A DNA stretch of 33,213 bases from a virus (IMGVR_UViG_3300045988_101411); one strand, 5' to 3'; positions 106-32,859 are shown, counted from the stretch's first letter. Notes: a model not told the origin generated them from the sequence alone. Translations and numbers: made by a program.

Positions 106-133
106 AATCTCCCTTACACGGGCTTATTTTTTA
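106..133. repeat. att core copy (ogr-proximal junction, attR-type)
   Basis: AATCTCCCTTACACGGGCTTATTTTTTA, identical to 32832-32859; matches the P2 att core as I recall it (revcomp AAAAAATAAGCCCGTGTAAGGGAGATT). Confidence 0.9.
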
Positions 134-194
134 CGCGTAATACAATGAAATAAAAGGATTTATTTCTGGTCACGTCCACACATTGACCACATCG

Positions 195-220
195 ACAAAA
201 AAGCCCCTCGACTGAGGGGC
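195..220 (-). terminator. Rho-independent terminator downstream of ogr
   Basis: Stem GCCCCTC (203-209) / GAGGGGC (214-220), 4-nt loop, followed on the minus-strand transcript by a U-run (plus-strand A-run 195-201). Confidence 0.7.
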
Positions 221-233
221 TTCCTGTTTGTAA

Positions 234-452
234 TTACATCCACATAATTTGCTGTCCTGATGGCAACGGGTGCGGCCTTACGGCGTGGACTTCTCCCGGC
301 TTCACGATGTATCGCTGTACCGACTCATAAGTGATGAACGTGGCGCTGCAATTCACGTTCTGGCACTGGTGATAACGCTCTTTTGTCGTGTCAGTGATAT
401 AGCGACTTGTACGCGCATGTGCGGCATGCTGGCATAAAGGACAATGAAACAT
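234..452 (-). CDS. ogr: Ogr late-gene transcriptional activator (C4 zinc finger), 72 aa
   Basis: MFHCPLCQHAAHARTSRYITDTTKERYHQCQNVNCSATF... with CxxC...CxxC; ATG at 450-452 (track ORF is extended to an upstream TTG); position next to D and att as in P2. Confidence 0.9.
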   Translation of the reverse strand: MFHCPLCQHAAHARTSRYITDTTKERYHQCQNVNCSATFITYESVQRYIVKPGEVHAVRPHPLPSGQQIMWM

Positions 453-533
453 CGCGAGCACCTCTTCCGGTTTTTTTGATGGTGTCATTTTAGTTAATTT
501 ATCCTTATAAAACAAACAGATAAAATAAAAACA

Positions 534-1697
534 TCACTCATCATCTTCTGTTTCGTACTCCACATCAGAAAGCCTGACCTCAAGCTCTAAGGACGTCGTG
601 AAGCCGCTATTATTCAGAAAATGTGTCACCTTAGTGATTGTCCAGTCCTGCTCGTCTATGACGCGCTTAAAGCCTGACACTCTGACCGGCGTTTCCGTGT
701 AAATATCAGCCCGACCAGTGGCAAGGCTGATGGAGAACTCCGCAACGCCCCGTTGCAGTTTGTCCCACTTCGCCTGAGCGGCGCGCATTGCCTGCGCTTT
801 CGTGGCATATACCGTGGTCAGGGCAAAAACGTTGTCAGCCTCACCGGCCATGTATTCACCTTCGCGCGCTTCCGGTACTTTTGGTGCTTTCTTCTGCGTG
901 ACCGGTTTCGCTTTCGGGTGCTCCAGTGCGCGCAGGTGTTTTTCTTTCTTTTTGCGTTTCAGTTTTACCTTCTGCTTTTGCGGCTTCGGGTCTTTGGTGT
1001 GTAACCACTTTGCCGTTACGCCGGTGTAAGCTCCACGGTCAGCAATCGCAAAATGATGACGGTCGCCGTCGCTGCGGGTGATGGTAATCTGCGGGATTTT
1101 TTTACCGCTGGCCGTCACCCCCTGCCCCGCTTTGAGAAACAGCAGTTTTCCCATTTTTACCGACACCTCGCCGCCGTTGCGTTCAGCAAGACGGGTCAGG
1201 AATTTCGCATCAGACTCCTGCGACTGGTCGATGTGTGGAATTTTTATTCCGGCCAGTGACGGAGCGACACTGGCTTCCAGCCTGTTACGGGAGGCTATCG
1301 CCTCAACAATCGCACCGAGCGTAATGTCATGCCATGAGCCTTCACGGCGGGAATTGAGCGTCCCGCGAAAATCTGCACTCCGGGCGCGGATGGTGACCAC
1401 ATCCGGCGCGCCCCGGTGTTCAACCTCATCAACGGTAAATTTCCCTTTGCATACCAGGGCAAAACCTTTCCAGCCGATATACACCGTCAGGACAGCGCCA
1501 CGAACCGGCAGCCCGACCTGCCCGTCGGCATCGTTCAGTTCAATATCAAGCTGGTCAGCCTCAAAGCCCCGGTTATCCGTCAGGGTCATGCTCATCAGAC
1601 GGTCGCTGATATTGCCGGTAATATCCCTGCTGTCGAGCATCAGCATGTAATCCGGCGTCAGCGTACTGCCTGCATCAAATGTCAGCGCATCCAGCAT
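534..1697 (-). CDS. D: Tail protein D (late control gene D family), 387 aa
   Basis: ORF length equals P2 gpD as recalled; synteny after U; 1-nt overlap with U stop. Confidence 0.88.
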   Translation of the reverse strand: MLDALTFDAGSTLTPDYMLMLDSRDITGNISDRLMSMTLTDNRGFEADQLDIELNDADGQVGLPVRGAVLTVYIGWKGFALVCKGKFTVDEVEHRGAPDVVTIRARSADFRGTLNSRREGSWHDITLGAIVEAIASRNRLEASVAPSLAGIKIPHIDQSQESDAKFLTRLAERNGGEVSVKMGKLLFLKAGQGVTASGKKIPQITITRSDGDRHHFAIADRGAYTGVTAKWLHTKDPKPQKQKVKLKRKKKEKHLRALEHPKAKPVTQKKAPKVPEAREGEYMAGEADNVFALTTVYATKAQAMRAAQAKWDKLQRGVAEFSISLATGRADIYTETPVRVSGFKRVIDEQDWTITKVTHFLNNSGFTTSLELEVRLSDVEYETEDDE

Positions 1698-2176
1698 TAT
1701 CCCGCCCCCGTCATACCCGTGAATTTAGTCGCCATACTGCCAGCCTTACCGATGAGCGATTCCGCCTGTTTACCGATATCGCCATAAAGCGCGGCCAGTG
1801 ACTCATCAACGCGGGTGAGCGACAGCGTAAAATCAATTTTCCGTGGTGTGCCGTCTGCAAAGAAAATACTCCCTGTTTCACTCACCTTGCTGATGACATA
1901 CATGCCGTAAATCATGCCGGTGCCATCCAGCAACGGCCACGCCCGGCCTTCCTCTGCCATCAGCCTGAGCGTGGTCATCGTCAGCTTTCCGCCGGTCAGT
2001 TCGGGATAAAGCACACCGGCAAGCGTCATGTTTTCCTCGCCAACACCGAGAAACTGGTAGGCATCCCGTTTACCGATACGGGAATTTGACGGCCAGCGAT
2101 AATCTGATTCACGCTGCATGGTCTGGTGTGGCAGCGTCTGGCGCATAAAAACAAACATACCTAACGCGAGCATCAT
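1697..2176 (-). CDS. U: Tail protein U, 159 aa
   Basis: Length and position between T and D as in P2. Confidence 0.85.
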   Translation of the reverse strand: MMLALGMFVFMRQTLPHQTMQRESDYRWPSNSRIGKRDAYQFLGVGEENMTLAGVLYPELTGGKLTMTTLRLMAEEGRAWPLLDGTGMIYGMYVISKVSETGSIFFADGTPRKIDFTLSLTRVDESLAALYGDIGKQAESLIGKAGSMATKFTGMTGAG

Positions 2177-2190
2177 TTTTCGTCACCTCC

Positions 2191-4638
2191 TTAACCGTCA
2201 TGCATCATGCTGGCACGGGCGCGCGCGCGTTTATCCCGCTCGTATTTTTCGAGCGCATCCTGTAACTGGCGGTCAAGCTGTGTCCCCGGCGCAGTACCAC
2301 CCGTCAGGCTGATGTGATATTCGTTTTTACTCTGGTCCACATAAGAGCGGCCAGCCGGTGCCGTAACCGGCTGATAAGCCTGATAGCCTGCATAAGAGCT
2401 GGACGCCGGAATATAACCACCGGTGCCATACGTGGCGGCATGAGCTCTGGCGGCGGTCTGGTCAAGTGTGTCTGACTCTTTGTTGATAACACCGAGTTTT
2501 TCCAGTACCCAGTCAATACCGCTGCACAGTTTGTTGAACGCATTAAGCGGCAGCATCAGCGCGTCAGCCAGTGCCTGCCCGAACATGACGCCCGTGTCAC
2601 GGCAACGGTTCAGCGCGTCCTGGGTGGCTTTGACCGGGGCAATCAGGTTTTTAAACCGCTGCCACGCGGCCTGTAACTTTTCGCCCAGCCAGTCAAACAC
2701 CGGCTTCAGTGGCGTAAACAGTTCCCCCACCGGCGCAAATGCCGCTTTCAGCCCTTCAACCACACCGCCAAAGAATGCGCTGACAGGCTCCCAGTATTTA
2801 CGGATAAGCAACGCCCCGGCGACAATGGCGGCCACCACAGCCACAATCGGCCAGCTAATCGCCCCGATGGCCGTCATAACAGCACTGCCAACCGTCGTGA
2901 AGATTGCCCCCATTGCGCCTGCTGCAGCGATGATGGCATTAATGCCGGTGATAACCGGCCAGGCTACAAGACCAATTGCACCGATGATGCCAATAAGCGC
3001 CAGTGCGCCACCGACAATAAGGCCGATGGTTGACGCCAGTGATTTGTTTTTCTGGATCCAGCCGTCGAGTTTTAACACATACTTTGTGGCCGTCTGCGTG
3101 AGATTACGCAGTGCGCCTTCCTGTTGGTCAAACAGGTCAGTCCCCACCGCCTCATAAGCAGACTGAAACTCCTTAAAGTCACCGCCGAGGTTATCCTGCA
3201 TGATTTTAACCAGCTCTTCCGTTTTACCGTCCGAGGCTTTCAGCGTGGCGGTCAGCTTATCCAGTTTTCCGCTTGCAGCCGCTGCCAGTAAAACGTTCGC
3301 TGATTTCAGGGCTTCCTCACCAAAAATGGTTTTAAGGTATTCCCCCTTCTGAGACGTTCCCAGCTTGTGTTTATCAAAGCTGGCCTGAATCTCTTTCAGA
3401 ATGGTGAACAACGGACGCATATTTCCCTTTTTGTCCGAGGTTTTAACGCCAAGCTCTTTGAGTGCTTCCCATGCTTTCCCTGTCGGAGCCTGTAATCGGG
3501 TGACAACGGCACTACTACCAGTACCCGCCATTGACCCCCTGATGTTATTGTCATGCAGCACACCTGTCATGGCCGCTGCCTGCTCAAGACTTACACCCGC
3601 CGTCCTCGCAACCGGCCCGAGGTAAGTCAGTGCATCACTGAGCCCCTGAAAATCAGCCGCCGACTTATTCATCGTTGCCGACAACACGTCGCCCACATGG
3701 CTGACATCATCATTTGACAGTTGAAAGGATGCCTTAGTCCCCAGCAACAGTTGCGCGTTTTCTTCCATCGACCGCTGATTCGCCAGTGCCATATTCAGCG
3801 TGACCGGCGTTGCCGCCTGAATAGCCGCAGCATCTCCACCCGCTTTCGCAATGATAATCTGCGCACCTGCCGCATCATCCGCCGAGGCGGCGGTATTATC
3901 GCCGAGCTGGCGCGCCTGCTTGCGTAGTGCAGCCATTTCGGCGGAGTCTTTTGCCACTCCGAGCACGGCCTGCAATTCTGAGTTTTTCTGCGCAAACTCA
4001 TAACCGGGCATCAGCAGCTTAACTCCGGCCATCGTTCCCGCCGCCGCAATCCCCACACCGGCAGCGCCCACTGAGGCCATATTTCCGGCCAGTTCCTTGC
4101 CGGCCTGATAACGCTGTTTGACTGCGTTAAGTTTTGCCTGTTGCGCACTGACACGCGCCAGCGCGTCACGCTGCCGGTTAAGCTGTGCGGTGGTTTCACT
4201 GATACGGTTTTTCAGTCCCTGCTCATCATGTGCAAGATTGCGGGTATTAATTCCCACAGCGGCCAGTTCCCGCTGCTGGCGTTTAACGGAATCCGTCAGG
4301 CGGTTATATTTCGCCTGTAAGTCCTCCGCCGCTCGCTTTGCTGATTCCAGCACTTTCGCCTGAGCACGGGTCGGACGTTCGGTGTTTTTAAACTGTGTGG
4401 CAAGGGCTTCGGCCTCCTGCCGTGCCTTTTCAAGTGCATGACCAGTCACGGCGAGCTGTGCACTGGTCTTGCGGAATCCCTCAATACGGGATGCGTGACC
4501 GTTCAGCTCGCGCAGTGATTTTTGTGTTTCCCGGATATCCCCCGACAGCGACTTACTCGCTGTGCGGATGGATTTAAACGGGCGGGATGCCTGGTCAACA
4601 GCCCTGAGCAATACCTGTAATTTTACATTGTTACTCAT
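2191..4638 (-). CDS. T: Tail tape measure protein T, 815 aa
   Basis: Long Ala/Gly-rich coiled-coil N-half and hydrophobic central block typical of tape measures; length matches P2 gpT; immediately downstream of E/E'. Confidence 0.9.
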   Translation of the reverse strand: MSNNVKLQVLLRAVDQASRPFKSIRTASKSLSGDIRETQKSLRELNGHASRIEGFRKTSAQLAVTGHALEKARQEAEALATQFKNTERPTRAQAKVLESAKRAAEDLQAKYNRLTDSVKRQQRELAAVGINTRNLAHDEQGLKNRISETTAQLNRQRDALARVSAQQAKLNAVKQRYQAGKELAGNMASVGAAGVGIAAAGTMAGVKLLMPGYEFAQKNSELQAVLGVAKDSAEMAALRKQARQLGDNTAASADDAAGAQIIIAKAGGDAAAIQAATPVTLNMALANQRSMEENAQLLLGTKASFQLSNDDVSHVGDVLSATMNKSAADFQGLSDALTYLGPVARTAGVSLEQAAAMTGVLHDNNIRGSMAGTGSSAVVTRLQAPTGKAWEALKELGVKTSDKKGNMRPLFTILKEIQASFDKHKLGTSQKGEYLKTIFGEEALKSANVLLAAAASGKLDKLTATLKASDGKTEELVKIMQDNLGGDFKEFQSAYEAVGTDLFDQQEGALRNLTQTATKYVLKLDGWIQKNKSLASTIGLIVGGALALIGIIGAIGLVAWPVITGINAIIAAAGAMGAIFTTVGSAVMTAIGAISWPIVAVVAAIVAGALLIRKYWEPVSAFFGGVVEGLKAAFAPVGELFTPLKPVFDWLGEKLQAAWQRFKNLIAPVKATQDALNRCRDTGVMFGQALADALMLPLNAFNKLCSGIDWVLEKLGVINKESDTLDQTAARAHAATYGTGGYIPASSSYAGYQAYQPVTAPAGRSYVDQSKNEYHISLTGGTAPGTQLDRQLQDALEKYERDKRARARASMMHDG

Positions 4639-5058
4639 TCGTGTTTCCGCTTCGCCGGAGCGCCTTTTCGCGCCATGTGATGAGTTCGGTCAGGCTCATG
4701 GGATACAGTTCTGATGGCGGCCAGTGAAATATCACTGCCACATCCGCCATCAGGTCATCGACCGACAGATTTTTTGGAAACGTCACTGCACCGAGTTCGG
4801 CGACAAAAAACCGACCACCTTACCGGCCAGCGCCACAAGGTCAGGCAGTTCCAGCGCGGCGACTTCCTGCTCGGTCAGCATCGGTGCCGTCATGCGCGGC
4901 AGCACCTTAATCAGTGCATCGACTTCGGAGTTTGCAACCGCAGCCAGACTGACACCGCGTAGCGTCCCGGCATTGGGTTTCATCAGCGTGACCTGTTCGA
5001 TAACCTGCTCACCACGTTTGACCGGATTGTCCAGGGTAATGACATTTTCTTTGTTCAT
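4631..5058 (-). CDS. E+E': Tail assembly chaperone E+E' produced by programmed -1 frameshift (slip site T_TTT_TTG at 4804-4810, minus strand)
   Basis: Manual translation: after the heptamer the -1 frame stays open for 59 codons to a TAA at 4631-4633 that overlaps the T start codon (4636-4638); total about 142 aa, matching P2 E+E'. Confidence 0.75.
4783..5058 (-). CDS. E: Tail assembly chaperone E, 91 aa
   Basis: Length and position between FII and T; ends ...GFLSPNSVQ* over a slippery run. Confidence 0.85.
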   Translation of the reverse strand: MNKENVITLDNPVKRGEQVIEQVTLMKPNAGTLRGVSLAAVANSEVDALIKVLPRMTAPMLTEQEVAALELPDLVALAGKVVGFLSPNSVQ

Positions 5059-5114
5059 GGTTTTCTCACTTCTGAATCAGGGTTAACCGGCCAGCCAGGC
5101 TGACCGGATGAAAA

Positions 5115-5633
5115 TCACAGGCCGATATTGCGGCGGTGTTGCTCCAGCCGGTCGACGCCGTTCACCTTTTCAATCATGTTGATGGTGTCAATTTCGACCA
5201 GCTCCTTACCGTCCATCGTCAGCCGGAAATAGGTGCAGACCACGGAGATTTTCGACTCGGTGTCTTCTCCCTGTTTGCCCTCGCCGGTGTCGATTTCTTT
5301 CTGACGTCCACGCATGACCACTTCGACGGCCACCGTTTCGCCGGTATCGTCGCGCTGGTAAGAGCCTGCAAAACGAATCGGCACGGCATCCACGCCGGTT
5401 GCGGCGTAAAGCTCCCAGATAACCGAATCCGGGAAGCCCCCGAGCGACCACTCCATTGACAGCGCATCGTCATCAAGGCCGAGGTCTACCGGTGCGCTGC
5501 CGTTCATCCCCGCACCGCGATAGTTTTCGAGCTTACGGGTCAGTTTTGGCAGCGTGACGGACTTTGCAACGCCCTGATAGCTGTAGCCGTTCAGAAAGAC
5601 GTTCATTAACTTGAGTTTGCGCGGCATTGCCAT
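5115..5633 (-). CDS. FII: Tail tube protein FII, 172 aa
   Basis: Length and synteny after FI. Confidence 0.88.
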   Translation of the reverse strand: MAMPRKLKLMNVFLNGYSYQGVAKSVTLPKLTRKLENYRGAGMNGSAPVDLGLDDDALSMEWSLGGFPDSVIWELYAATGVDAVPIRFAGSYQRDDTGETVAVEVVMRGRQKEIDTGEGKQGEDTESKISVVCTYFRLTMDGKELVEIDTINMIEKVNGVDRLEQHRRNIGL

Positions 5634-5645
5634 CGGTCAGGCTCC

Positions 5646-6836
5646 TTAATTGCTGTTAACCGAGGTGACCAGATTTGCCAGGTATTTATCGGTAATACGC
5701 TGGCGCAGGGTCAGGTTTTCGAGAGGAGGCACCGGTGTATAGTCGTAGTCGATATACAGTTTTCCGGCCTTGAGGGTTTCCGCATCGTTGGATTCTTCGC
5801 TGAACCAGCATGAGCCATCCACGATATAGCCGTTTGTTTTCAGCTCACGGAATTTGGCATTGATGCCGTCAACGATGTCGCGAATCAGCGTTGCGGTGAT
5901 GGGCTTGTCCACCGCCCACATGTGCGCCTCAGCCATCGTGTCGGCCAGCACCTGCGCGGTGCGGGTGTAGTTTTCAAAGAGGAACAGCGGGTCATCAGAG
6001 CAGGTACGGTTACCCCAGAAGCGGAAACCGTCGCGGCGAATCAGCGTTGTGACGCCTGACTCGTTAAGCAGGTCAGCATCGGTGCCGGACTCCTGCAAAT
6101 CCCAGAATACAGAGGCGCTGATGCCGGTAACACCGTTCACCCCAACGTTGGACAGCGTTTTATGCCAGCCCTGCTCCTGGTCGATTTTAGCGCGCAGACC
6201 CAGCGCACGGGCGGTGGCATACGCGGTGGCGGTGGTACTGGTGACCGTATCCCATGCGAGGAAATCCGGCCAGATGACCATCAGCTCACGCTGGCTGAAA
6301 TTCTGGCGGTAGGCTTTCACCTCGGAAATGGTCTTACATCCCCATGCGCTGATATACCCGAAAGCACGCAGCTTCTGACAGACTGATGCCAGTGCAACAG
6401 CCACCTCTTTGGTGTCCAGTCCCGGCACGCCGAGAATACGCGGTTTAACACCAGTTACCGACTCCGCCGCCAGCAGGGCTTTCAGTCCAGTGTACTGACC
6501 GTTTTCGTCGGTGGTGCCGATGATATTGGAAACGGTCTGCGCGAGTTTCGTTTCCTCGTCGTCGCCGGTGCCGTCTTCCACACGCACGACAACGGTGACC
6601 GGTTTTGACTGGTCGGCGATAGCCTGCAACGATGCCGCCAGCGTGCCTTTTTTACCGGCCTTTGCAATCGCGCTCTGCACATTGGTAATCAGCACCGGTT
6701 TATTGAGGGGGAAGGTTTCCGCATCCGCATCGCTGGCCGTGCAGACCATGCCGACAATGGCGGTGGATACGGTGGAAATGACGCGGGTGCCGTCGTTAAT
6801 CTCCAGCACCTGCACGCCATGATGATAGTCGCTCAT
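5646..6836 (-). CDS. FI: Contractile tail sheath protein FI, 396 aa
   Basis: Length and synteny; first gene of the FI-FII-E-T-U-D late operon. Confidence 0.9.
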   Translation of the reverse strand: MSDYHHGVQVLEINDGTRVISTVSTAIVGMVCTASDADAETFPLNKPVLITNVQSAIAKAGKKGTLAASLQAIADQSKPVTVVVRVEDGTGDDEETKLAQTVSNIIGTTDENGQYTGLKALLAAESVTGVKPRILGVPGLDTKEVAVALASVCQKLRAFGYISAWGCKTISEVKAYRQNFSQRELMVIWPDFLAWDTVTSTTATAYATARALGLRAKIDQEQGWHKTLSNVGVNGVTGISASVFWDLQESGTDADLLNESGVTTLIRRDGFRFWGNRTCSDDPLFLFENYTRTAQVLADTMAEAHMWAVDKPITATLIRDIVDGINAKFRELKTNGYIVDGSCWFSEESNDAETLKAGKLYIDYDYTPVPPLENLTLRQRITDKYLANLVTSVNSN

Positions 6837-6935
6837 CCGTTTAACTCCGTGGTTAATGGGTGCAACTATTTTCTGTTGGGCAGTGCATGAGACGCTATTT
6901 GACCTGGCTGGTCAGTGGATGAAACAACAGATAAA
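6837..6935 (-). promoter_or_regulatory. Candidate late promoter P_F region (Ogr-dependent) upstream of FI
   Basis: About 100 bp between the upstream terminator and the FI ATG; contains TGT-N12-CCA (minus strand, plus coordinates 6909-6926) resembling the TGT-N12-ACA activator site I recall for P2 late promoters; exact promoter elements not verified. Confidence 0.35.
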
Positions 6936-6959
6936 GAAAAGGCGGGCAATCAGCCCGCC
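6935..6959 (-). terminator. Rho-independent terminator ending the G/cargo transcript before P_F
   Basis: Stem GGCGGGC (6941-6947) / GCCCGCC (6953-6959), 5-nt loop, U-run on the minus-strand transcript (plus-strand AGAAAA 6935-6940). Confidence 0.7.
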
Positions 6960-7270
6960 AGTCTTGATTTGTACTCGCTCAGTTTCCAACTGACAATTTA
7001 CGTAGCCAAAACGCTATCAGCTCTGACAGCCAGCTTTGAGCGAGTCGAAAAAGTTCATACCTTTCTGCTGGTGAAAGTTTAACTAACAGTTCAACCTATC
7101 AATTAATTGATGAACAGGTTGAGGCGTTTTTAATATCTCTGCGTCATCTGAGACGATTTTGCGCTACAGGATTTACGGCTTATCTGGGGGCATTCTTGAG
7201 CCCTGACTCCTCTGAAAACATAATTAGGCCATACCTGTGACCTGCTCTTCGTTGGTAAGGTTAGCGAATA

Positions 7271-8350
7271 TTAATCTGAGTCCATTTTCCCAAACTCTGT
7301 CAGGCCGAAAACGGAGCTACCAGAAACATGAGCTTGTAAGCCCGCTTCCTGCATGTCACTCAATTCAACTTCTTGGCTATCCTCTAATCCGATAGAGAAC
7401 ATGGGATAGGCCCAGTTCCAATTCGGATCAGGAACCAAACTATTATTCTCTATCTTGAAAAAGCTGACCATGAGATGATGCCTTCCCTGTATCGCCTCTT
7501 CATCATTGATGTTGACCAGTACACCAAAGTGCTTGTAGCCGGCTTGTCCATTCTCGAACATTTTTATCTTGGTGCCGTTTCTGAACATCCAAAAAGAATG
7601 ATTTCCAGTGGAATCAGCGACCTGCAAGTTATCTTCGTCAATTTCCCAATTAAGATATTGTTTGATATCAGACTTTGGTTTGAGTTTTTCGTCATTACTA
7701 AACCATTGTATTGCCGGAAGTGGAAGGTGAAGACCTTCCGGCTGGGGAGGCTGACCTGCAGCAATGGAATGCATGATCTCTGTCATTGATGGAAGCCCCA
7801 TCAAATGCCATACATCATGGATATCCTTTTTAAGTATAAGAAGCCCTTTGGATACACCATCCGCGTAAGTTGACTTTAAGCGGACTAGTATGTCCTTGTT
7901 ACCATCTTTGTCGAGGTCTTCAATGTTTACTGAAGAAGCCACAACCTCGTCGTCCCCTGCGTCTGGGATGATTGCCCAATACCCAATATCGTAGAATCCA
8001 GGTCTGCCAACCACCTTATCTATCAAACTCTGTCCAGAGGGCTCGAAGACCATCAGGAAACGGCTAAGGGCACCATTTGTGCTCACAGCTCTTCCGTAGA
8101 CTACAACGGAGTTTGAGGTGCTTAGATCGAGAGACTCGCTAGCCACTGAGTCAAACGCCACTGAGTCCAAATGTGTGGCAAGCTGCTGCTGGATGCACTC
8201 CCGAGCCATTTCAACTAATTTTTCGCGAACATCAGCAGATCGTATTGGCTGTGAAGTGAAATGGAAAAGCCCTACTGTAGCCGCTATGCCTATTATTCCC
8301 GAAATAACGGTACTTAGAACCTGCTCCTTTACCACTTTCACAACTTTCAT
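7271..8350 (-). CDS. Cargo gene at the Z/fun hotspot: membrane-anchored protein of unknown function (about 359 aa from ATG 8350; track gives a GTG start at 8380)
   Basis: N-terminal hydrophobic helix VLSTVISGIIGIAATVGLFHF; DLDKDGNKD (DxDxDGxxD) motif encoded at 7892-7918; AT-rich relative to backbone; located between G and FI where P2 carries Z/fun. Confidence 0.8.
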   Translation of the reverse strand: MKVVKVVKEQVLSTVISGIIGIAATVGLFHFTSQPIRSADVREKLVEMARECIQQQLATHLDSVAFDSVASESLDLSTSNSVVVYGRAVSTNGALSRFLMVFEPSGQSLIDKVVGRPGFYDIGYWAIIPDAGDDEVVASSVNIEDLDKDGNKDILVRLKSTYADGVSKGLLILKKDIHDVWHLMGLPSMTEIMHSIAAGQPPQPEGLHLPLPAIQWFSNDEKLKPKSDIKQYLNWEIDEDNLQVADSTGNHSFWMFRNGTKIKMFENGQAGYKHFGVLVNINDEEAIQGRHHLMVSFFKIENNSLVPDPNWNWAYPMFSIGLEDSQEVELSDMQEAGLQAHVSGSSVFGLTEFGKMDSD

Positions 8351-8678
8351 CAATAGCTTCTTCAACTTCACTTCAGGCACCTAAATACTATTAAACTTGT
8401 CATGGGAAAATCCGATTATTATTGTAGAGAACAACAAAAACTGGCCTCGATTTTAGAGTTTTTCCAGTATCTATTTTCCGACTCGTTCGGCGGTAATCCA
8501 CCGTTATATTCATGAGGCCGGGGTGCACTATAATATTCAACTATATACTCTGTTTGTAGTGGCACATTAAATTTGGTGACAGATATGCATCACGTCCGCT
8601 CCTAGCACAGAGCGGACAGTCAGATTAGGTTTTACTCTGTGCCATAGATGAGTAATCTCACACCAGAGCTAATACGAT

Positions 8679-9257
8679 TTATTGCGGCATTTCAGGCCAT
8701 TCTATATCCGGAGCATTTTCCGGCTGAACGCGATTAAGTAGCACACGGTATTTTTTCCAGTGTGTCAGGCTTAACTTTTCTTCCTCGGTAGCCATATCTA
8801 AATCGACAGCATCCTGCAGCATGGCAATGATTTCACCTGCATATGCAATCTGCTCTTTCTTCTGAGACTCAGCCGCTCTGACAAGTGCATCACGCTCTGC
8901 ATTCTCATCATTCACCCACGCATTTCCGTTCCATTTCTGATAATCCCCCTCCGGGGAAATGGCTGTCACGTCTGGAGGTAATGCGCCAAGTTCAGAAATA
9001 TAAATGGCTGCTCCCGTTTTCGTTTCGTAGACAGTCTTTCCGCGATGATCTTCCATCAGTTCCCATTTCATTTCATCTGCATTGAAAACGGCTGCATAAC
9101 CAGCAGGAATATCAGGTGGTGCAATATCTGTACTGTTTGCAGGCAGGCCAGTATACGGCGGAATATATGCATCACTTTCGCCAATAAACTCATTGGTTCC
9201 ATCAAGTAAATTGAAAACGCGGATAGTTTGTGCTTCCGCACTCATTCTGAAAGCCAT
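8679..9257 (-). CDS. G: Tail fibre assembly protein (Tfa), 192 aa
   Basis: Immediately downstream of H with 1-nt overlap; Tfa-like composition; P2 gpG position (P2 G is shorter, about 175 aa, as recalled). Confidence 0.8.
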
Positions 9258-13317: not shown

Positions 13318-13321
13318 GGTT

Positions 13322-14301: not shown

Positions 14302-14367
14302 AACGGGAAGGATGCCGCCGGGTCATACCGGCGGCAATGTGACGATGAGGTGTCAGGAATGGCACAA
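14302..14367 (-). promoter_or_regulatory. Candidate late promoter P_V region
   Basis: Only intergenic gap between S and V; position corresponds to P2 P_V; motif not confirmed (a TGT...ACA element is present but with a shorter spacing than the recalled consensus). Confidence 0.3.
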
Positions 14368-16226: not shown

Positions 16227-16240
16227 GGTGTTTACTCCGT

Positions 16241-17019: not shown

Positions 17020-17022
17020 GCG

Positions 17023-18578: not shown

Positions 18579-18581
18579 CGG

Positions 18582-19655: not shown

Positions 19656-19713
19656 AGTTTTTCCTGAAATTAAGGGTTAATCGTGAAGGTTTTCCCGGAC
19701 TGACTGACGCCGG

Positions 19714-23575: not shown

Positions 23576-23717
23576 ACACCCCGTCATCACGCCCTCACAC
23601 GCTCGCCACCGCACAAAACATCCCGCAGACACACCAACGCCCCAGCACACAATCTAAACGCCATCACGACGCGCTCAGACGCTGAAAAAATAAAATCAGC
23701 ACCACCGCCAGCGCGCA

Positions 23718-23736
23718 GTGCTTTCCCCGCCTCGCC
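23718..23736. other. cos: cos site (19-nt cohesive-end sequence)
   Basis: GTGCTTTCCCCGCCTCGCC is the reverse complement of GGCGAGGCGGGGAAAGCAC, the P2 cohesive end as I recall it; located between Q and the cargo, as expected. Confidence 0.8.
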
Positions 23737-23873
23737 CGCCCGCTTCACGGGGCAATTTGAATGCAAATGCATTAGCATTCAAAAGCTATCCCCCAAGCAG
23801 CCTGTAAGAGTTTTTACCTCTACTTGTTTTGCATGCAAATTAATGCAATAGCATATACACCTACAGCATCTGA

Positions 23874-25163
23874 CTACTTTGTAAAAAGAGGCCTATATTT
23901 TTCAAACAAGGAGGTTTCGGATGTATTAACATCAGTGGCAGGCTGCATCTCAGCATGTTGCTTTTGTAAACGCTTAAATCTATCAATTGAATCTTTAATT
24001 AACCAAGACATTGACACCATTTCTAAAGGAGTGCGAAGCATCATTTGCCATGACACCCCCCAAATCAATGAGCTACCAAATTCTTTAAATATCATCGAAT
24101 AGTCTTCACCATCGACAAAAACAAGCTCAAACCCTTCATTCAAAGCTATTTGTTTAAAACAATCCAAATCAAGAACACAGAGAATGGTTAACTCCCCATT
24201 TATAAAGTCACACAAATCACGCGCATCATTTATAAGATTAACAAATGGAGTTAAAGGAACCCACAATTGATTATTTTTATATTCATTCAAAAATATAGGT
24301 GCAATTTTCCTCCCTCTAAGATCCAACTGTGATAATGCTATTTCCAGATCACAGCCACGATTAGATACCACATAAAATCCATCTTCTAGCCTTACCCATG
24401 AAATTCCTTTTTTCCTGCATACATTCAGATGCTCATTAAATTCTTTTTTATATGTAACTTCTGAAAAACACAGTTCTTTCCTTAACACTAATGGCATCCC
24501 TCTAAAATCTTCAGCTTTATCTTCTGCTAAAAATTCAGCCAGTCTATTAAGGTTATTTTTTTGACGTTCAACACGATCATTTTTATTTTGACTTGATTTC
24601 ACCTCCACTAGTACTGGTGCACCTTCACCAAGTAAACAAACATCACCATGCCTCATACTCATTGTAATATCATTGAGTAACGTAGGAACACCAGCCTTGC
24701 AGGCCTTCTTCACCAATTCCCATTCTTCTTTTAAGCCATCCTTCCCTCCCATATAGCCTGCTGACTCCTTGGGACTGTAATCCACAACATTATAAAAAAA
24801 ATGCTTAATATCAAACTTATCCAAATACAAAAAAGCAACACTATCACCAAACATTTTGAAGATATATATTTTAAATTTCACATCATCAATAACCTGCTCA
24901 ACACTCTTAATATTTTCCTTAATAAGTTTAGATTGTTCTTTTTTTAAACCACCTTTTCTTTTTGTTGCCTTTAGTTCCCCTAAGAAAGACTTTAATCCTT
25001 TGATCATCCTTTCACTTCTAATTATATTCCTTATTATTTTGAACTGAAACGACAACAACAAATCTGTATTTTTTAGGTTTCCCTCTAATTTTACCAGGTC
25101 TTTTTTCAAATCAAACACTACCGAGTCATGCAATTTTCGACTCAATTCAGTCTTAAACTTCAT
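23874..25163 (-). CDS. Cargo gene 2 of the tin/old-hotspot cassette: 429-aa protein with PD-(D/E)xK-like nuclease signature; function unknown
   Basis: ATG 25161-25163 with GAGGGA Shine-Dalgarno; EEWELVKK (acidic helix) then RHGDVCLLGEGAPVLVEVKSS (D174, E187-x-K189; motif encoded at 24597-24644, verified by manual translation); no Walker A P-loop; strongly AT-rich. Confidence 0.85.
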   Translation of the reverse strand: MKFKTELSRKLHDSVVFDLKKDLVKLEGNLKNTDLLLSFQFKIIRNIIRSERMIKGLKSFLGELKATKRKGGLKKEQSKLIKENIKSVEQVIDDVKFKIYIFKMFGDSVAFLYLDKFDIKHFFYNVVDYSPKESAGYMGGKDGLKEEWELVKKACKAGVPTLLNDITMSMRHGDVCLLGEGAPVLVEVKSSQNKNDRVERQKNNLNRLAEFLAEDKAEDFRGMPLVLRKELCFSEVTYKKEFNEHLNVCRKKGISWVRLEDGFYVVSNRGCDLEIALSQLDLRGRKIAPIFLNEYKNNQLWVPLTPFVNLINDARDLCDFINGELTILCVLDLDCFKQIALNEGFELVFVDGEDYSMIFKEFGSSLIWGVSWQMMLRTPLEMVSMSWLIKDSIDRFKRLQKQHAEMQPATDVNTSETSLFEKYRPLFTK

Positions 25164-25275
25164 AGTTCCCTCAATAAAAGCAACTTACAGTCAAGGTAAT
25201 TACTCCTGTAGTGGAACAGACTATTGCAGTCTCGCTCCACCACTAGTATAACAAGTGTCAATACGGCATCAACGA

Positions 25276-26007
25276 TTAGTTATCTAATACTGAAACGACT
25301 TCGCCCGTTCGGATGTCGACACGCGCAGCAATAGTCTGTTTAACTACTCCTCCATAAGCATTAGTGCCACGAAATGTGGTTTTCACAATGGCGTGCGGGT
25401 CTTTATTCAAAACCAAATGATATACCGTTGACACATGTTTATAAGATGAATCATCGTTCATATTATCTTTAATTAGTTTTTCCAATGGACGATAAGAACC
25501 ATCCCAACCACTAAAATTGCTCTGAAATGTATCAAGATTGATTTTATTGTTTAGTGAATTCGGGTCATTTTCATAATCATTAAAGCACCACCCAAGAACA
25601 TCACCGAGTTTCAACTCATCATCTTTGGTAAATGTATACTCACTCATGCAGGCATAAAATGCATCTGATGCGGTGACTGGCACTTTCTTAAAGTTAATGT
25701 AACTATTCACAATATCGTGTCGAGTCTTCTTTGGCTCGTTCCGATATTCCTTGAGTGTTTTTTCAGTATATTCGAATGTTTTTTGAGCCTGGTGTTCTGC
25801 TACGGTTGCTGTTTCAGTTTTAGCAACTGGCTGGCTTTTTTCTGTTGGGTAGAGTATTGAACCAATTATGCTCAATGCAAAACCACCTCCGAGATAAACC
25901 GCACTTGCACGTTTACGGTTTGGCATCCGCACCAGTGATGGCTTGATTAACCCGATGAAAAAAGCAACGAAAAAAGCGAGTGATAGAAAAGCGATTACAA
26001 TATCCAT
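25276..26007 (-). CDS. Cargo gene 1 of the tin/old-hotspot cassette: membrane protein with two N-terminal TM helices and a soluble C-terminal domain, about 243 aa; function unknown
   Basis: ATG 26005-26007 with AGGA Shine-Dalgarno (track ORF starts at an upstream GTG 26031); hydrophobic segments IVIAFLSLAFFVAFFIGLI and AVYLGGGFALSIIGSILY; co-oriented with the downstream 429-aa gene; AT-rich. Confidence 0.8.
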   Translation of the reverse strand: MDIVIAFLSLAFFVAFFIGLIKPSLVRMPNRKRASAVYLGGGFALSIIGSILYPTEKSQPVAKTETATVAEHQAQKTFEYTEKTLKEYRNEPKKTRHDIVNSYINFKKVPVTASDAFYACMSEYTFTKDDELKLGDVLGWCFNDYENDPNSLNNKINLDTFQSNFSGWDGSYRPLEKLIKDNMNDDSSYKHVSTVYHLVLNKDPHAIVKTTFRGTNAYGGVVKQTIAARVDIRTGEVVSVLDN

Positions 26008-26236
26008 AGCTATCCTTTTTGCATCATCCACATAAAAAATCGACCTTATGTTAGCAACAGGAAGCTTACTTTTGAATATTTGTAAGTTGTTAGCTTTAGC
26101 TCTCCGAGCTAACTCCTTTCAACCGTCAAAAACCAGCACCAACGCAGTAAAAATATGACTGTCAACTAACGCCTCGCTTCGCTCGTTGTTCAACCCCGCC
26201 AGCCCTGAAAACAAGTTTCACGACTGGCGGCGTTCT

Positions 26237-26443
26237 CTATCGTCTGCGTGGTGGTGGCGTAACTCTTGATTGACCGATATGGTTAAACCGCCCGTAATTA
26301 TCCCGGACTATTTCGGCACACCCGACTAGCTCATCTGGCGTCAGATTTTCGTTGACCATAATCCGCTGTAAACGCTGAACAATAGCCATCAGCTTGATAT
26401 TTTTAGTTTTATGGTGCGGTATCTCGCCTGGTATTCTGTGCAT
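26237..26443 (-). CDS. Small hypothetical protein (about 68 aa), translationally coupled to the upstream ASCH gene
   Basis: ATG overlaps the ASCH stop (TAATG at 26441-26445); no recognisable motif. Confidence 0.5.
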   Translation of the reverse strand: MHRIPGEIPHHKTKNIKLMAIVQRLQRIMVNENLTPDELVGCAEIVRDNYGRFNHIGQSRVTPPPRRR

Positions 26444-26895
26444 TATCCAAGCCACCCGTTTTGCTGTGCACGCTCCATCTGTTCATCTGAATAGTTCCAT
26501 GCTTCATCCGTGGCAACCATTGCACCGCCAGACATCCCCGTCTCTGGTTCATACATAACAGCAAGGCCGAGCTGATGCATAATTTCATGATTAATTCTGA
26601 ATACCAGACCACGCTCACTAAGTTCTTTCCAGTTCACAATCTCATATGCACCTGTATTAAGCAGCTCAATACTTAGCAAGACATAATCTTCCAGCCAGTC
26701 TGACAGGTCAGTAACATCTGTTATCCGGGCTTCAACCTTTCGCCCCGTATACACACCCTGCCCCCATTCATGCAAAATCAACGTGTCCCCGCGCTCATAA
26801 TTACGGTCATTTTTCCGAAACTCTGCGCGTTTCTTTCCTTCCAGCACAAGGTCGAAATATTTTGCGTGCAGCTTTACCTCGTGAATTTTTGCCAT
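26443..26895 (-). CDS. ASCH-domain protein (GxKxxExR motif) with a C-terminal HExxH motif, about 150 aa
   Basis: LEGKKRAEFR matches the ASCH hallmark GxKxxExR; NHEIMH contains HExxH; start ATG overlaps the A stop (TGATG) with GGAG Shine-Dalgarno. Confidence 0.75.
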   Translation of the reverse strand: MAKIHEVKLHAKYFDLVLEGKKRAEFRKNDRNYERGDTLILHEWGQGVYTGRKVEARITDVTDLSDWLEDYVLLSIELLNTGAYEIVNWKELSERGLVFRINHEIMHQLGLAVMYEPETGMSGGAMVATDEAWNYSDEQMERAQQNGWLG

Positions 26896-29180
26896 CATGT
26901 CCACTCCATTACTGTTGAAAATCCCGGCCATTCATCAGCGACCGGATACGTGAATTTTTTCCCGTCATAATTTACGGTTGCCCCACGCGCCAGCGCCTCA
27001 AGCTCCCATCGCTGCGGCCTGATACTATTCTGAGCAAGGTCAACGCGGATACGGGTAATTTGCATTCTTTCCGACCGGGTCAGTCTGGCCGATGGTGCAA
27101 TTTCATGTGGTTTTAACGGGCTTCCGTTTCTTTGCTGACGGTTTGGCGTTCTCAGGTCGTGTTTTAATGCGCCCCTGAGCGCCCTCACGACCTCCGGTTC
27201 ATTCCATTCAATAACACCGTTATCAACCAGATTAAGCACTGCTGCGGCGTGCTCAGAAGGTGTGGGAGCCGGTAACGAAGCATCACCACCAGTGAGCTTT
27301 CCACAGTTATTGACAGGACTCCGAGGCGCGGCGATGCCGCTTTTTAAAGTCAAAGGCTCAACGACCGGCACTTTCGGAACAATGCGCCAGTCCGTCGTTC
27401 TGGTGATATGAATATGACGCGCGCCGAGATGCGGCGCGTAAATGCCGACCACTCTCTCGACTTCTTCCTCATACTCGTTAACGTCATCCGACGGGCTACG
27501 GGCGACCCTGACAGTCTGACAATCGCGCGGGACATTTGCCCCACCCTGCGCGCTGATATACAGCGCAAAATCGCCACTGTCTGCGGCAGCGCGTGCAGCC
27601 TCGACGCGTTCGTCAAACTCATCAGCAATGCTGACGCCGCGAGGCAATTTGCGTAGTTCACGGTAAGCCCCCATTGTCGGCAGGCCAACCGTTTTAAATT
27701 GCGGAATGCGCCACGTTGACGCCCATGCGGTAACAGCCGCGGCAGTGTCTTTCAGCGGCCTGCCGGTATCGTTATCGAGCTGACCATCCAGTGCATAGCC
27801 GTCGATGTTTTTTGAAATGTATTTCGCGATATATCCCGCAGCACCGCCCCGGTTAAGGTGTTTTGCCTGAAAACGGTTTCGCGCAGCTCCTCTTTCGTCT
27901 CCATCCTCTTTGAGCGCGTAGCGACGCATGATTTCGATAATCTGGTTACGCTGGCGTGGATTACAAAAAAGCATCATATGCCAGTGCGGCGTTCCGTCGT
28001 GGTGTGGCTCGACGACACGCAAACCGTAGACCTGTAAATCATTATCCTTGAATGCCGTGCGCATCAGGCTCCAGATGCGGCAGAGATAACGCTGCGCATC
28101 CTTTGGATTAAATGCCTCATCGTTCCAGCCGTGATTAAGCTGAACGGTTTTACTTTCGCCTTTTCTGACCTGACGTGTCGGGTGATACTTTGACGGCGCG
28201 GTCAGCGTGATAAACATCCCCACATCACCCTCTGCGGCGGCGTAACGCTCAATACCGGCAATGGTGTTCATCAGCTCCATCCGGCGAATTTCAGGATTAG
28301 AAATACTGCCCATCACCTTACTGATAAGGTCGATACGCTCGCCGGTTTCCCTGTTTTCAAGGTCACACGATTTAAGAAATTCCAGATTTGCCTGGCGGCG
28401 CGCACGCACATCACGAATGGCGTGTTTACTGGCATAAGGAGAACGGTCTTTATTGACCTCCCCGACAGCTATCAGTAACGCTTCATGCCAGCGCATACGC
28501 TGGCCTTTAAGCTGATGAGTCCACCACTCATCGTTAAACAGACGGGCAATTGCAGAATATGCCTGCCTCGTGGTCATCTGTCCTTTACGGTATTTTTTCC
28601 AGTAAAGCGGGGAAATATTGAAAGCACGTGCAGCGCCAGCAACATGACCATAGAGGTGAGCCTGCGCCTCATCCGTAAACAGCGATTCTTTCTCGCCATG
28701 CGCATCCACCCAGGCATCGCAGAGTTCCTCATACATCATGAAAAGCTGTGATGAGATACGGGCGGCAAACTTTTTCAGCTCCTTGTCATTCATCCCCGGC
28801 AGGCGCGCATACTGGTCGCGCTCTGCCAGAAACAGCAACGACGCGTCGGTGTTCATTTCATGGCGCTGATTCACGCGCTCAATGCGCGGCCATAAACGAC
28901 GCTGAAAAGTGGATGTGAGGAAATAAAACCCGTGTACCGGGCTTTTATTGCGCCGGATGTAGTCATAGCGTGAAGTAAACAGCGAGCGCAAAAAGTAAGG
29001 CAGGCGGTTAATCGTGGATAAAACACCTTGCACCTGACGCATCTCATCACGTGTAAGGGGTCTTTCGCGCCCGACAGCCTCGCGTGGCGCGTTCCATGCA
29101 TAAGCACCGGCAAACGTCTTACCGGTGCCTGCGGCAAATGCTGACGGAGGGACAAAACGCCCGGAGGCTTTAACGGCCAT
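26895..29180 (-). CDS. A: Replication initiation protein A (rolling-circle nickase), 761 aa
   Basis: Start MAVKASGRFVPP... at ATG 29178-29180 (track ORF extends to a TTG); length matches P2 A; position after orf83. Confidence 0.88.
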   Translation of the reverse strand: MAVKASGRFVPPSAFAAGTGKTFAGAYAWNAPREAVGRERPLTRDEMRQVQGVLSTINRLPYFLRSLFTSRYDYIRRNKSPVHGFYFLTSTFQRRLWPRIERVNQRHEMNTDASLLFLAERDQYARLPGMNDKELKKFAARISSQLFMMYEELCDAWVDAHGEKESLFTDEAQAHLYGHVAGAARAFNISPLYWKKYRKGQMTTRQAYSAIARLFNDEWWTHQLKGQRMRWHEALLIAVGEVNKDRSPYASKHAIRDVRARRQANLEFLKSCDLENRETGERIDLISKVMGSISNPEIRRMELMNTIAGIERYAAAEGDVGMFITLTAPSKYHPTRQVRKGESKTVQLNHGWNDEAFNPKDAQRYLCRIWSLMRTAFKDNDLQVYGLRVVEPHHDGTPHWHMMLFCNPRQRNQIIEIMRRYALKEDGDERGAARNRFQAKHLNRGGAAGYIAKYISKNIDGYALDGQLDNDTGRPLKDTAAAVTAWASTWRIPQFKTVGLPTMGAYRELRKLPRGVSIADEFDERVEAARAAADSGDFALYISAQGGANVPRDCQTVRVARSPSDDVNEYEEEVERVVGIYAPHLGARHIHITRTTDWRIVPKVPVVEPLTLKSGIAAPRSPVNNCGKLTGGDASLPAPTPSEHAAAVLNLVDNGVIEWNEPEVVRALRGALKHDLRTPNRQQRNGSPLKPHEIAPSARLTRSERMQITRIRVDLAQNSIRPQRWELEALARGATVNYDGKKFTYPVADEWPGFSTVMEWT

Positions 29181-29968: not shown

Positions 29969-30192
29969 CAAAGCACCTCCCCGCGAGACAATCCGATATT
30001 GTGAAATTTTTCCGACTCCTGACTGAGCAGCTCGACTATCTCCACGCGGGATAACTCCGCCTTTGTGATATGGCGAATCATGGCGTCAAGATGAGAAGAA
30101 AAGCGTGTCGCTGCGTCGGCCTGTGCTTCGGCTCTGGCCTATTGCAGCAGTAATGCGTATTTACCGCACTTGTTTTCAGAAACTGTATGCAT
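29968..30192 (-). pseudogene. orf80-position small ORF interrupted by an in-frame TAG at codon 18 (30139-30141)
   Basis: Manual translation: [76 protein letters not shown], ending with TGA that overlaps the next ATG (TGATG). Confidence 0.45.
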
Positions 30193-31209: not shown

Positions 31210-31290
31210 GTCGTCCTCCAGCCCTCATGAATTGCGTTTAATGCCTTATAATGCCTTTTAGTGCACACATCCAAGCACTAAACAATCTAC

Positions 31291-31320
31291 ATCTAAACTA
31301 AATACTATTGAGATCTAAAC
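31291..31320. promoter_or_regulatory. Candidate C-repressor operator: 8-bp direct repeat ATCTAAAC x2 spaced 22 bp, in the Pe/Pc switch region
   Basis: ATCTAAAC at 31291-31298 and 31313-31320 (third partial copy CTAAAC at 31277-31282); P2 C is known to bind direct repeats about two helical turns apart flanking the Pe -10. Confidence 0.5.
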
Positions 31321-31323
31321 ACC

Positions 31324-31623
31324 ATGTCAAACACGATAAGCGAGAAGATAGTCTTAATGCGAAAATCAGAGTATTTGAGCAGACAACAACTTGCTGATTT
31401 AACAGGGGTTCCGTATGGCACGCTGAGTTACTATGAAAGTGGTCGTTCAACACCTCCAACAGATGTCATGATGAACATCCTGCAGACCCCACAATTCACC
31501 AAATACACTTTATGGTTCATGACCAATCAGATCGCTCCTGAGTCCGGGCAAATTGCGCCCGCTCTCGCACACTTTGGGCAAAACGAAACAACGTCTCCCC
31601 ACTCCGGTCAAAAGACTGGTTAA
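31324..31623 (+). CDS. C: Immunity repressor C, 99 aa
   Basis: Helix-turn-helix QQLADLTGVPYGTLSYYESG; length matches P2 C; upstream of int on the same strand. Confidence 0.9.
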   Translation: MSNTISEKIVLMRKSEYLSRQQLADLTGVPYGTLSYYESGRSTPPTDVMMNILQTPQFTKYTLWFMTNQIAPESGQIAPALAHFGQNETTSPHSGQKTG

Positions 31624-31738
31624 CAATTCATCGTGAATATATTCATCACAAGTGCCTACTATTGGTGGCTAAATTTCAGCCACCACGAAAAAAGCGATTA
31701 GTAGTCGCCAAAAAACACACCACTCGGAGGGTTTTCTG

Positions 31739-32752
31739 ATGGCAATCAAAAAACTCGATGATGGTCGATATGAAGTGGACATCCGCCCTACTGGACGTAA
31801 TGGAAAACGCATCCGTAGGAAGTTTGATAAGAAAAGCGAAGCTGTCGCTTTCGAGAAATACACGTTGTACAACCACCACAATAAAGAATGGCTATCAAAA
31901 CCAACAGACAAGCGACGTCTGTCGGAGCTGACACAGATCTGGTGGGATTTAAAGGGTAAACACGAAGAGCATGGGAAATCTAATCTTGGAAAAATTGAAA
32001 TCTTCACAAAAATAACGAATGACCCATGCGCATTTCAAATTACGAAATCGCTTATCAGCCAGTACTGCGCCACCCGAAGAAGTCAGGGTATTAAACCTTC
32101 GAGTATCAATCGTGATTTAACATGTATTAGCGGCATGTTTACAGCCCTGATTGAAGCGGAGTTATTCTTTGGTGAGCACCCTATCAGAGGGACAAAAAGG
32201 CTTAAGGAGGAAAAACCAGACACAGGCTATCTCACGCAGGAAGAAATTGCCTTACTGCTTGCTGCTCTTGACGGCGACAATAAAAAGATTGCGATTCTTT
32301 GCCTGAGTACTGGAGCTCGTTGGGGAGAAGCAGCTCGTTTGAAAGCAGAAAATATCATCCATAACCGCGTCACGTTTGTTAAAACGAAAACAAACAAACC
32401 ACGCACCGTCCCGATCTCAGAGGCTGTTGCCAAAATGATCGCGGATAACAAACGAGGTTTTTTATTCCCTGATGCTGATTACCCTCGCTTCAGACGAACA
32501 ATGAAAGCAATAAAACCGGATTTGCCAATGGGGCAAGCCACACATGCACTAAGGCACAGCTTTGCCACTCATTTCATGATTAATGGAGGAAGTATTATCA
32601 CGCTACAACGGATACTAGGTCACACGCGGATTGAGCAAACTATGGTTTACGCTCATTTTGCTCCAGAGTACCTTCAGGACGCCATTTCTCTTAATCCGCT
32701 GAGAGGTGGTACTGAGGCCGAGAGTGTCCACACAGTGTCCACAGTAGAGTAA
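31739..32752 (+). CDS. int: Tyrosine integrase, 337 aa
   Basis: Catalytic-domain residues R...HxLRHxxAT...Y (ALRHSFATHF, MVYAHF); length matches P2 Int; adjacent to att core. Confidence 0.92.
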   Translation: MAIKKLDDGRYEVDIRPTGRNGKRIRRKFDKKSEAVAFEKYTLYNHHNKEWLSKPTDKRRLSELTQIWWDLKGKHEEHGKSNLGKIEIFTKITNDPCAFQITKSLISQYCATRRSQGIKPSSINRDLTCISGMFTALIEAELFFGEHPIRGTKRLKEEKPDTGYLTQEEIALLLAALDGDNKKIAILCLSTGARWGEAARLKAENIIHNRVTFVKTKTNKPRTVPISEAVAKMIADNKRGFLFPDADYPRFRRTMKAIKPDLPMGQATHALRHSFATHFMINGGSIITLQRILGHTRIEQTMVYAHFAPEYLQDAISLNPLRGGTEAESVHTVSTVE

Positions 32753-32831
32753 CGTTTAAGGGCTTTCAGTGGTCATTTATGCCGCTCAAACCCGCATTGT
32801 ACCGTTGAAAGCCCCTACTGATGACACCCTA

Positions 32832-32859
32832 AATCTCCCTTACACGGGCTTATTTTTTA
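32832..32859. repeat. att core copy (int-proximal junction, attL-type)
   Basis: Identical 28-mer to 106-133. Confidence 0.9.

Follow-up and report, generated by a model that had tools for sequence, protein, structure and literature searches.

The window analysed here, a stretch of 33,213 nucleotides from the virus IMGVR_UViG_3300045988_101411 numbered from its first letter, contains a P2-type prophage inserted between the Escherichia coli genes yegQ and yegR, at the 3' end of the small RNA (sRNA) gene cyaR; this cyaR-yegR insertion site we take to be the P2 locI. The element is bounded by an exact 28-bp direct repeat, AATCTCCCTTACACGGGCTTATTTTTTA, and its head, lysis, tail, replication and lysogeny modules are collinear with those of phage P2, the gene order of the genus Peduovirus. 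Two cargo islands lie among them, one at the Z/fun position and one between cos and orf91 (Table 1).

Boundaries, gene content and cis-acting sites

The repeat matches the P2 Int core site at 28/28 positions and contains the annotated 27-bp P2 attP core, and chance alone would produce an estimated 8e-9 or so such 28-mer repeats in 33 kb (5.5e8 pairs x 4^-28). The 28th identical core base is a host polymorphism: in the nearest complete genome, that of the sister strain E. coli 19KM1831 (NZ_CP151026.1; dog, Switzerland), position 32859 is a G, leaving the canonical 27-bp core identity there. An empty-site construct, made by joining window 1-133 to 32860-33213 (487 nt), was searched in 5,426 complete E. 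coli genomes. The empty cyaR-yegR junction was uninterrupted in 4,561/5,426, with a best match of 99.0% over 487/487 nt in one piece. Since the construct is contiguous in these 4,561 genomes, the element starts and ends exactly at the cores, which gives it a length of 32,726 bp (P2, 33,593 bp; sequenced relatives, 29-35 kb). The P2 att core coincides with the 3' end, or terminator region, of the cyaR/RyeE sRNA gene. The final 24 nt of cyaR lie within the core and phage DNA follows downstream in the lysogen, so that cyaR is kept whole after integration because the duplicated core supplies these nucleotides. The attP reconstructed from the phage sides of attR and attL aligns without gaps at 257/265 positions to P2 and at 262/265 to the released phage 10W. 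The element thus has the attributes of the P2 Int/att group, namely a P2-type integrase, a duplicated core, arm, IHF and Cox sites, and an empty site obtained by precise deletion.

All 42 annotated P2 proteins (NC_001895) were translated and searched against the window by tblastn. Matches were obtained for 38/42, every one ungapped and in P2 order, and no match in the window was found for orf30, fun(Z), tin and old. The corresponding blastn comparison returned five collinear blocks in which the aligned DNA is 92-98% identical. The core genes from Q to A were tested individually (Q, P, O, N, M, L, X, Y, K, lysA, lysB, lysC, R, S, V, W, J, I, FI, FII, E, T, U, D, ogr, int, C, cox, orf78, B, orf81-83 and A). 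An ATG start codon is present in 33/33 and the P2 length in 32/33, the exception being orf81 with 99 amino acids (aa) instead of 100. Protein identity to P2 across the core ranges from 91 to 100%, reaching 100% for C, cox and ogr and 99.7% (336/337) for Int. The -1 frameshift product E+E' reads through with S29N as the single difference from P2, and its slippery region is identical (31/31). Outside the core, H matches P2 H over the first 207 aa only, G is replaced, and orf91 is a longer, 151-aa variant.

The cis-acting sites are listed with their P2 matches in Table 1. In addition, 26 nt around the ori nick are identical to P2, and around cos the conserved sequence extends about as far as it does in P24B2 and Wphi. 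Two regions are unlike P2, the S-V spacer and the PF region. Neither is a lesion, because the same sequence is present in the viable phage P24B2, where both the S-V spacer and the stretch around the PF activator site are identical. The alignment was extended to a seven-phage panel made up of P2 and six isolated or released Peduoviruses (P24B2, P22H4, 9W, 10W, P24A7b and Wphi). It revealed no frameshift, truncation or lost cis-acting site beyond the amber codon in orf80, which is the sole interrupted open reading frame (ORF) among the P2-type genes. The essential genes are open and of full length, and cos, ori, the promoters and the att sites are all present.

These results bear out the greater part of the earlier note, in which the element had been described as an apparently intact P2-like prophage flanked by identical 28-bp cores, with protein lengths matching P2, with the small gene at the orf80 position as its only disrupted ORF, and as the vehicle of two cargo islands; both islands are real and lie inside the packaged genome. 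Its description of a near gene-for-gene P2 architecture holds for the 38 collinear proteins, but not for the four absent genes, the swapped H tip and G, and the variant orf91.

Table 1. Positions of genes, sites and islands in the window, with matches to P2 and other phages.
Feature	Position	Strand	Details
Host cyaR (RyeE) sRNA gene	44..129	+	Rfam RF00112, 100.7 bits, E 3e-19, full model 1-85
attL core	106..133	.	28 bp, same as attR core
IHF site	131-164		29/34 to P2; differences from P2 common to phage 10W
attL phage side	134..222	-	IHF site, Int P-arm site, ogr/F-operon terminator
Int P arm	168-195		28/28 to P2
ogr/F-operon terminator	200-222		23/24 to P2
ogr, late-gene activator	234..452	-	72 aa, 100% identical to P2
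F operon tail genes	534..6836	-	all P2 lengths, 91-100% identity
D	534-1697	-	F operon
U	1697-2176	-	F operon
T	2191-4638	-	F operon
E+E'	4631-5058	-	-1 slip at ~4803
E	4783-5058	-	F operon
FII	5115-5633	-	F operon
FI	5646-6836	-	F operon
PF late promoter region	6837..7043	-	with right inverted repeat of Z-region (6962-7043)
Cargo island 1	7044..8593	-	Z/fun position, guanine-cytosine (GC) content ~44%
359-aa ORF	7271-8350	-	from ATG; 369 aa from GTG at 8380
IS3-family transposase fragment	~8416-8554	-	~135 nt (~8419-8553)
Z-region left inverted repeat	8594..8702	-	88% to repeat annotated in AJ512683
Tail-fibre assembly protein, G position	8679..9257	-	192 aa, Caudo_TAP; 98% to P24A7b chaperone, 40% to P2 G
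Tail fibre H	9257..11875	-	872 aa, intact
Baseplate genes	11886..14301	-	I, J, W, V
I	11886-12416	-	baseplate
J	12409-13317	-	baseplate
W	13322-13669	-	baseplate
V	13666-14301	-	baseplate
S-V intergenic region (PV promoter)	14302..14367	-	orf30 absent; 66 nt 100% identical to viable phage P24B2
O operon	14368..20568	-	S, R, lysC, lysB, lysA, K, Y, X, L, M, N, O
S	14368-14820	-	O operon
R	14813-15280	-	O operon
lysC	15243-15533	-	O operon
O-operon attenuator	15318-15336		19/19 to P2
lysB	15388-15813	-	O operon
lysA	15801-16226	-	O operon
K	16241-16738	-	O operon
Y	16738-17019	-	O operon
X	17023-17226	-	O operon
L	17226-17735	-	O operon
M	17835-18578	-	O operon
N	18582-19655	-	O operon
O	19714-20568	-	O operon
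PO/PP divergent late promoters and activator site	20569-20741	.	173/173 to P2
Terminase large subunit P	20742-22514	+	P2 length
Portal Q	22514-23548	+	P2 length
cos region	23677..23765	-	
cos cohesive end, 19 nt	23718-23736		19/19 to P2
Cargo island 2	23766..26442	-	between cos and orf91; GC falls to 34%
429-aa ORF	23874-25163	-	low GC
Orf97-like 243-aa ORF	25276-26007	-	two predicted membrane helices; WP_000355825
68-aa ORF	26237-26443	-	next to orf91
orf91 variant	26443..26898	-	151 aa, DUF3850/ASCH + DUF7415, 99% to P22H4 and 9W
Replication initiator A	26895..29180	-	761 aa, 98% to P2; contains ori
ori +/- 40	27282-27362		79/81 to P2; nick ~27322
orf83	29170-29445	-	P2 length
orf82	29442-29666	-	P2 length
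orf81	29669-29968	-	99 aa vs 100 in P2
orf80 (DUF2732) pseudogene	29971..30192	-	codon 18 CAG to TAG at 30139-30141
B	30256-30756	-	P2 length
orf78	30753-30923	-	P2 length
cox	30934-31209	-	100% to P2
Pe/Pc switch region with operators O1, O2	31210..31323	.	111/114 to P2
Pe/O1/O2/Pc switch	31227-31330		102/104 to P2
Immunity repressor C	31324-31623	+	100% P2 C (99/99 aa)
Integrase	31739-32752	+	99.7% to P2; 100% to P22H4, 9W, 10W
attR	32718..32859	.	Int P' arm 32718-32744, Cox boxes 32742-32815, core 32832-32859
Int P' arm	32718-32744		27/27 to P2
Cox boxes	32742-32815		73/74 to P2
Host flank into yegR	32860..33213	.	right of attR

Whole-genome similarity to P2 is ~74% (24.6 kb identical aligned bases; 2 x 24.6 / (32.7 + 33.6)), which lies above the genus line of ~70% and, owing to the swapped regions, below the 95% that defines the species Peduovirus P2. 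The element is a Peduovirus with P2 immunity and att specificity, below the species line. P2 itself (NC_001895 / AF063097) shares with it the gene order, the core genes (91-100% at the protein level), the attP core, arms, cos, ori and late promoters; the window differs from P2 in lacking orf30, fun(Z), tin and old, in its swapped H C-terminus and G, in the longer orf91 and in the orf80 amber. The module of orf91, the 68-aa gene and the Orf97-like gene beside gene A recurs in 9W and P22H4, whereas 9W has a 232-aa hypothetical protein beside cos where the window has its 429-aa gene, and 9W, 10W and P22H4 all have their own Z-region genes and fibres as well as an intact orf80. P24B2 and P24A7b resemble the element in other ways: with P24B2 the element shares the orf30-less S-V junction, the PF activator stretch and the first part of the fibre, with P24A7b the fibre layout (~873 aa plus a 192-aa chaperone, G 98%). 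Both are heteroimmune (C 43-51%, Int 50-53%), carry other cargo and another H tip, and presumably use other att sites.

Taken together, the sequence makes it very probable that this is a complete and intact P2-type prophage, able to excise and form particles, released spontaneously or through a P4-type satellite or Cox but not in an SOS response, and carrying cargo in known swap regions. In the sequence of events envisaged, P2 Int would have inserted the phage through a single crossover inside the 27-bp core at the site preferred in E. coli, the 3' end of cyaR, the core duplication rebuilding the sRNA gene. From this state the prophage should be able to excise, replicate, package at cos and form infectious particles. 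Its individuality would lie in the swap regions, where orf30 is absent, a mosaic fibre and chaperone of P24B2/P24A7b type are present and cargo occupies both the Z-region and the A-Q region, a 359-aa putative membrane protein standing between the Z-region repeats and the 429-aa gene with the Orf97-like module apparently replacing old and tin.

The mosaic character of the fibre is evident from H, whose residues 1-673 are 97% identical to P24B2, whereas over its full length it is 77% identical to P24A7b (76.7%), the sole full-length match in the phage records. The tip, from about aa 771 to 872, diverges from all seven panel phages. Repeated HxH motifs were observed in the C-terminal ~100 aa (window 9257-9560). 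RefSeq treats H of the sister genome as a pseudogene in three fragments (L002 13262-15880, where L002 is the sister locus). This assignment was rejected, as the 872-aa ORF is open and the protein identical in both genomes, and the pseudogene flags are an annotation artefact.

Two observations concern the host flank. The bacterial side of attR (32860-32920) is ~70% similar to the phage P arm and includes CATTGACCACATCGA of the Int arm site. A strain-specific tandem or older prophage was considered as its source and rejected, since the stretch is found at the ordinary unoccupied site in most E. coli genomes; an ancient P2-like element at this position may have left it as a vestige. In 19KM1831 an extra 170 bp lie between attR and yegR (L002 38345-38514; window 33024). 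They are missing from the window, and it is the window's version that aligns in one piece, at 99%, with the best empty-site genomes.

The orf80 amber codon and the sister prophage

The single lesion among the P2-type genes results from an A at window base 30141, where the sister strain has a G and keeps the CAG codon. It is the only difference from the 19KM1831 copy across 28954-32858. In IMG/VR the 32-mer spanning the amber was absent, while the CAG 32-mer was found 11 times. Because the sister copy reads CAG and the amber 32-mer is missing from IMG/VR, the stop is either a private mutation of very recent origin or an error in base calling. The second possibility, a sequencing or assembly error in a prophage free of any defect, would fit a single C-to-T transition (coding strand) that is unique within almost 4 kb and whose allele occurs nowhere in IMG/VR. 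However, the site lies outside any homopolymer, the other ORFs are clean and no part of the window shows signs of poor sequence quality, so that an error appears quite unlikely.

The prophage of 19KM1831 occupies the same yegQ-yegR site, carries both cargo islands and has an intact orf80. It is identical to the window over 1-9000 and 24000-30140, and 99.1% identical overall. Its gene A, in contrast to that of the window, is interrupted: an IS3-family element of 1.3 kb has inserted there, with a 3-bp target duplication, CGG (L002 32962-34273, corresponding to window 28954-28956). The sister copy is dead by this insertion, and the window copy intact. Over window 1-28956 there are 262 mismatches between the two prophages, all of them within 12000-23750 except three in H, and the flanks of this block are identical. 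Within 12000-23750 the two copies differ by about 1-2%, a pattern that points to homologous recombination with a further P2 relative.

Several points weigh against a functional prophage. orf80 is intact in 7/7 reference phages and is, given this conservation, probably useful; no literature was found on whether it is essential. The amber lies upstream of the essential gene A in the same early operon, and polarity on A is conceivable, which constitutes the one concrete risk to viability. Between 0 and 6 residues per protein are unseen in the seven-phage panel (the fibre tip of H, with 32, set aside), among them P E328, T R661 and C705, and A Q123, and missense changes of this kind may affect function. 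The fibre tip is without a close match in the phage records, and no host-range prediction follows from it. Finally, neither the 359-aa nor the 429-aa gene appears to be present in any sequenced phage, so that lytic growth with precisely this combination of cargo would be without precedent.

From these points an element could be envisaged that looks intact and is functionally dead, either through the amber (by loss of orf80 function or by polarity on orf81-83 and A) or through an inactivating missense change, and the IS3-family insertion in the sister copy demonstrates that the lineage does decay. Against this, only one gene is broken, a small one without a known essential role, whereas the genes with known essential roles are all of wild-type length and 91-100% identical to P2. 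The amber would moreover be so recent (CAG in the sister; 11 vs 0 occurrences in IMG/VR) that little time has been available for further decay, and a supE host inserts Gln at UAG and would restore the wild-type orf80 residue. A dead prophage is hence considered unlikely, and the intact prophage remains the preferred reading.

Lysogeny switch and expected mode of release

The repressor C is identical to P2 C over 99/99 aa and the operator region matches at 102/104 positions. As immunity classes of P2 phages are defined by >=95% C identity (PMC3448106), the element falls into P2 immunity class I. The int, C and cox proteins are also identical to those of 9W, 10W and P22H4, and because both 9W and 10W came from E. 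coli lysogens, this module works in a released phage. P2 is not SOS-inducible (PMC8440029), and with a repressor that is 100% P2 C the same is expected of the present prophage.

A scan for LexA boxes (CTG-N10-CAG with an AT-rich spacer) returned two weak matches only, both inside coding sequence (D and H). No Tum-like gene was detected, and the small ORFs next to the Orf97-like gene are without Tum-like features. Coliphage 186 is a member of the same family with a related late-gene layout. It is SOS-inducible and has a CI/Apl switch and a LexA-controlled Tum antirepressor, none of which is present in the window. An SOS response in the manner of 186 is consequently regarded as highly improbable. 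Nothing specific speaks for it apart from the Orf97-like gene in the right-end cargo, whose name, in annotations of related phages, is taken from a 186 gene, whereas the switch is that of P2, with both C and Cox at 100%, and P2 is documented as non-inducible.

By analogy with P2, release would be expected to occur spontaneously at low frequency, or following derepression by a P4-type satellite or Cox, and no response to mitomycin C or ultraviolet (UV) light would be expected. The suggestion in the earlier note that the prophage is probably inducible therefore has to be withdrawn, and the proposed test, in which a lack of particles on induction would count against the prophage, would give a false negative because the P2-type C is not SOS-inducible. 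A standard induction experiment would in other words be misleading, and failure with mitomycin C or UV would not refute intactness.

Cargo in the Z-region and the A-Q region

The first island fits precisely into the P2 Z-region as annotated in AJ512683, with the left inverted repeat on one side and the right one on the other. Its 359-aa protein has a predicted N-terminal membrane helix followed by a beta-rich remainder with a DxDxDG-like stretch, NIEDLDKDGNKD; the AlphaFold model was poor (predicted local distance difference test (pLDDT) 51.6). The island is present in 52/5,426 complete E. coli genomes, and among O25b:H4-ST131 strains a prophage with this island recurs, at 96.4% identity over window 1-9300. 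A relative with 82% identity lies in a CP4-57-like island, beside genes for AlpA, YfjJ, WYL, DUF932, antirestriction and RadC proteins. The IS3-family transposase fragment within island 1 matches ~1,100 other E. coli genomes and may be a trace of the arrival of the cargo.

The second island, between cos and orf91, stands in place of old and tin at the A-Q hotspot. This region, between gpA/orf91 and cos/gpQ, has been described as a reservoir of anti-phage systems (PMC9122126; PMC13586616). The Orf97-like protein WP_000355825 is common to 9W, P22H4 and P24A7b, and in Table S5 of Rousset et al. 2022 it is listed within the arrangement 'DUF3850/ASCH + hypothetical + hypothetical'. Just 17 complete E. 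coli genomes carry the 429-aa gene. Its product is part of an unnamed family without a Pfam model, comprising at least 465 clusters (50% identity) at E <= 1e-30, and D174, E187 and K189, which make up a D...ExK triad, do not vary across 79 diverse members. Its AlphaFold model is confident (pLDDT 88.9) and consists of an N-terminal three-helix bundle and alpha/beta domains; no neighbour of this predicted structure was found in the PDB or BFVD. Relatives in Pluralibacter have a Psu fragment on one side and an integrase fragment on the other, which is a decayed P4-type hotspot position, and a Vibrio cholerae relative adjoins a serine recombinase.

None of the four cargo proteins matched a defence model of PADLOC-DB 2.0 at E <= 0.01, and family members gave sub-threshold PADLOC hints only, e.g. 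CARF_PDDEXK at 0.0087. Pfam and NCBIfam yielded no match for the cargo proteins and PHROGs only families of unknown function. A tblastn search of the 359-aa and 429-aa proteins against 50,697 phage records likewise gave no match, a promoter scan of both islands did not rise above the shuffled background, and the cargo accession and PHROG numbers did not occur in the literature searched. Judging from their position and mobility, our best guess is that the cargo genes are passengers with an exclusion or defence role expressed in the lysogen. Tentatively, and going by sequence and predicted structure, the 429-aa protein could be a new single-gene anti-phage nuclease that moves among P2 hotspots, P4-type hotspots and other integrative elements, and the 359-aa protein a new exclusion factor.

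P2-type prophages at the cyaR site are common and well understood, and the novelty, if any, lies in the passenger genes. For probing their function, the intact window copy and the IS-disrupted copy of 19KM1831 would constitute a natural matched pair. The prophage is a credible live vehicle, and a potential helper of P4 satellites, for three uncharacterised accessory genes located at positions typical of anti-phage systems.

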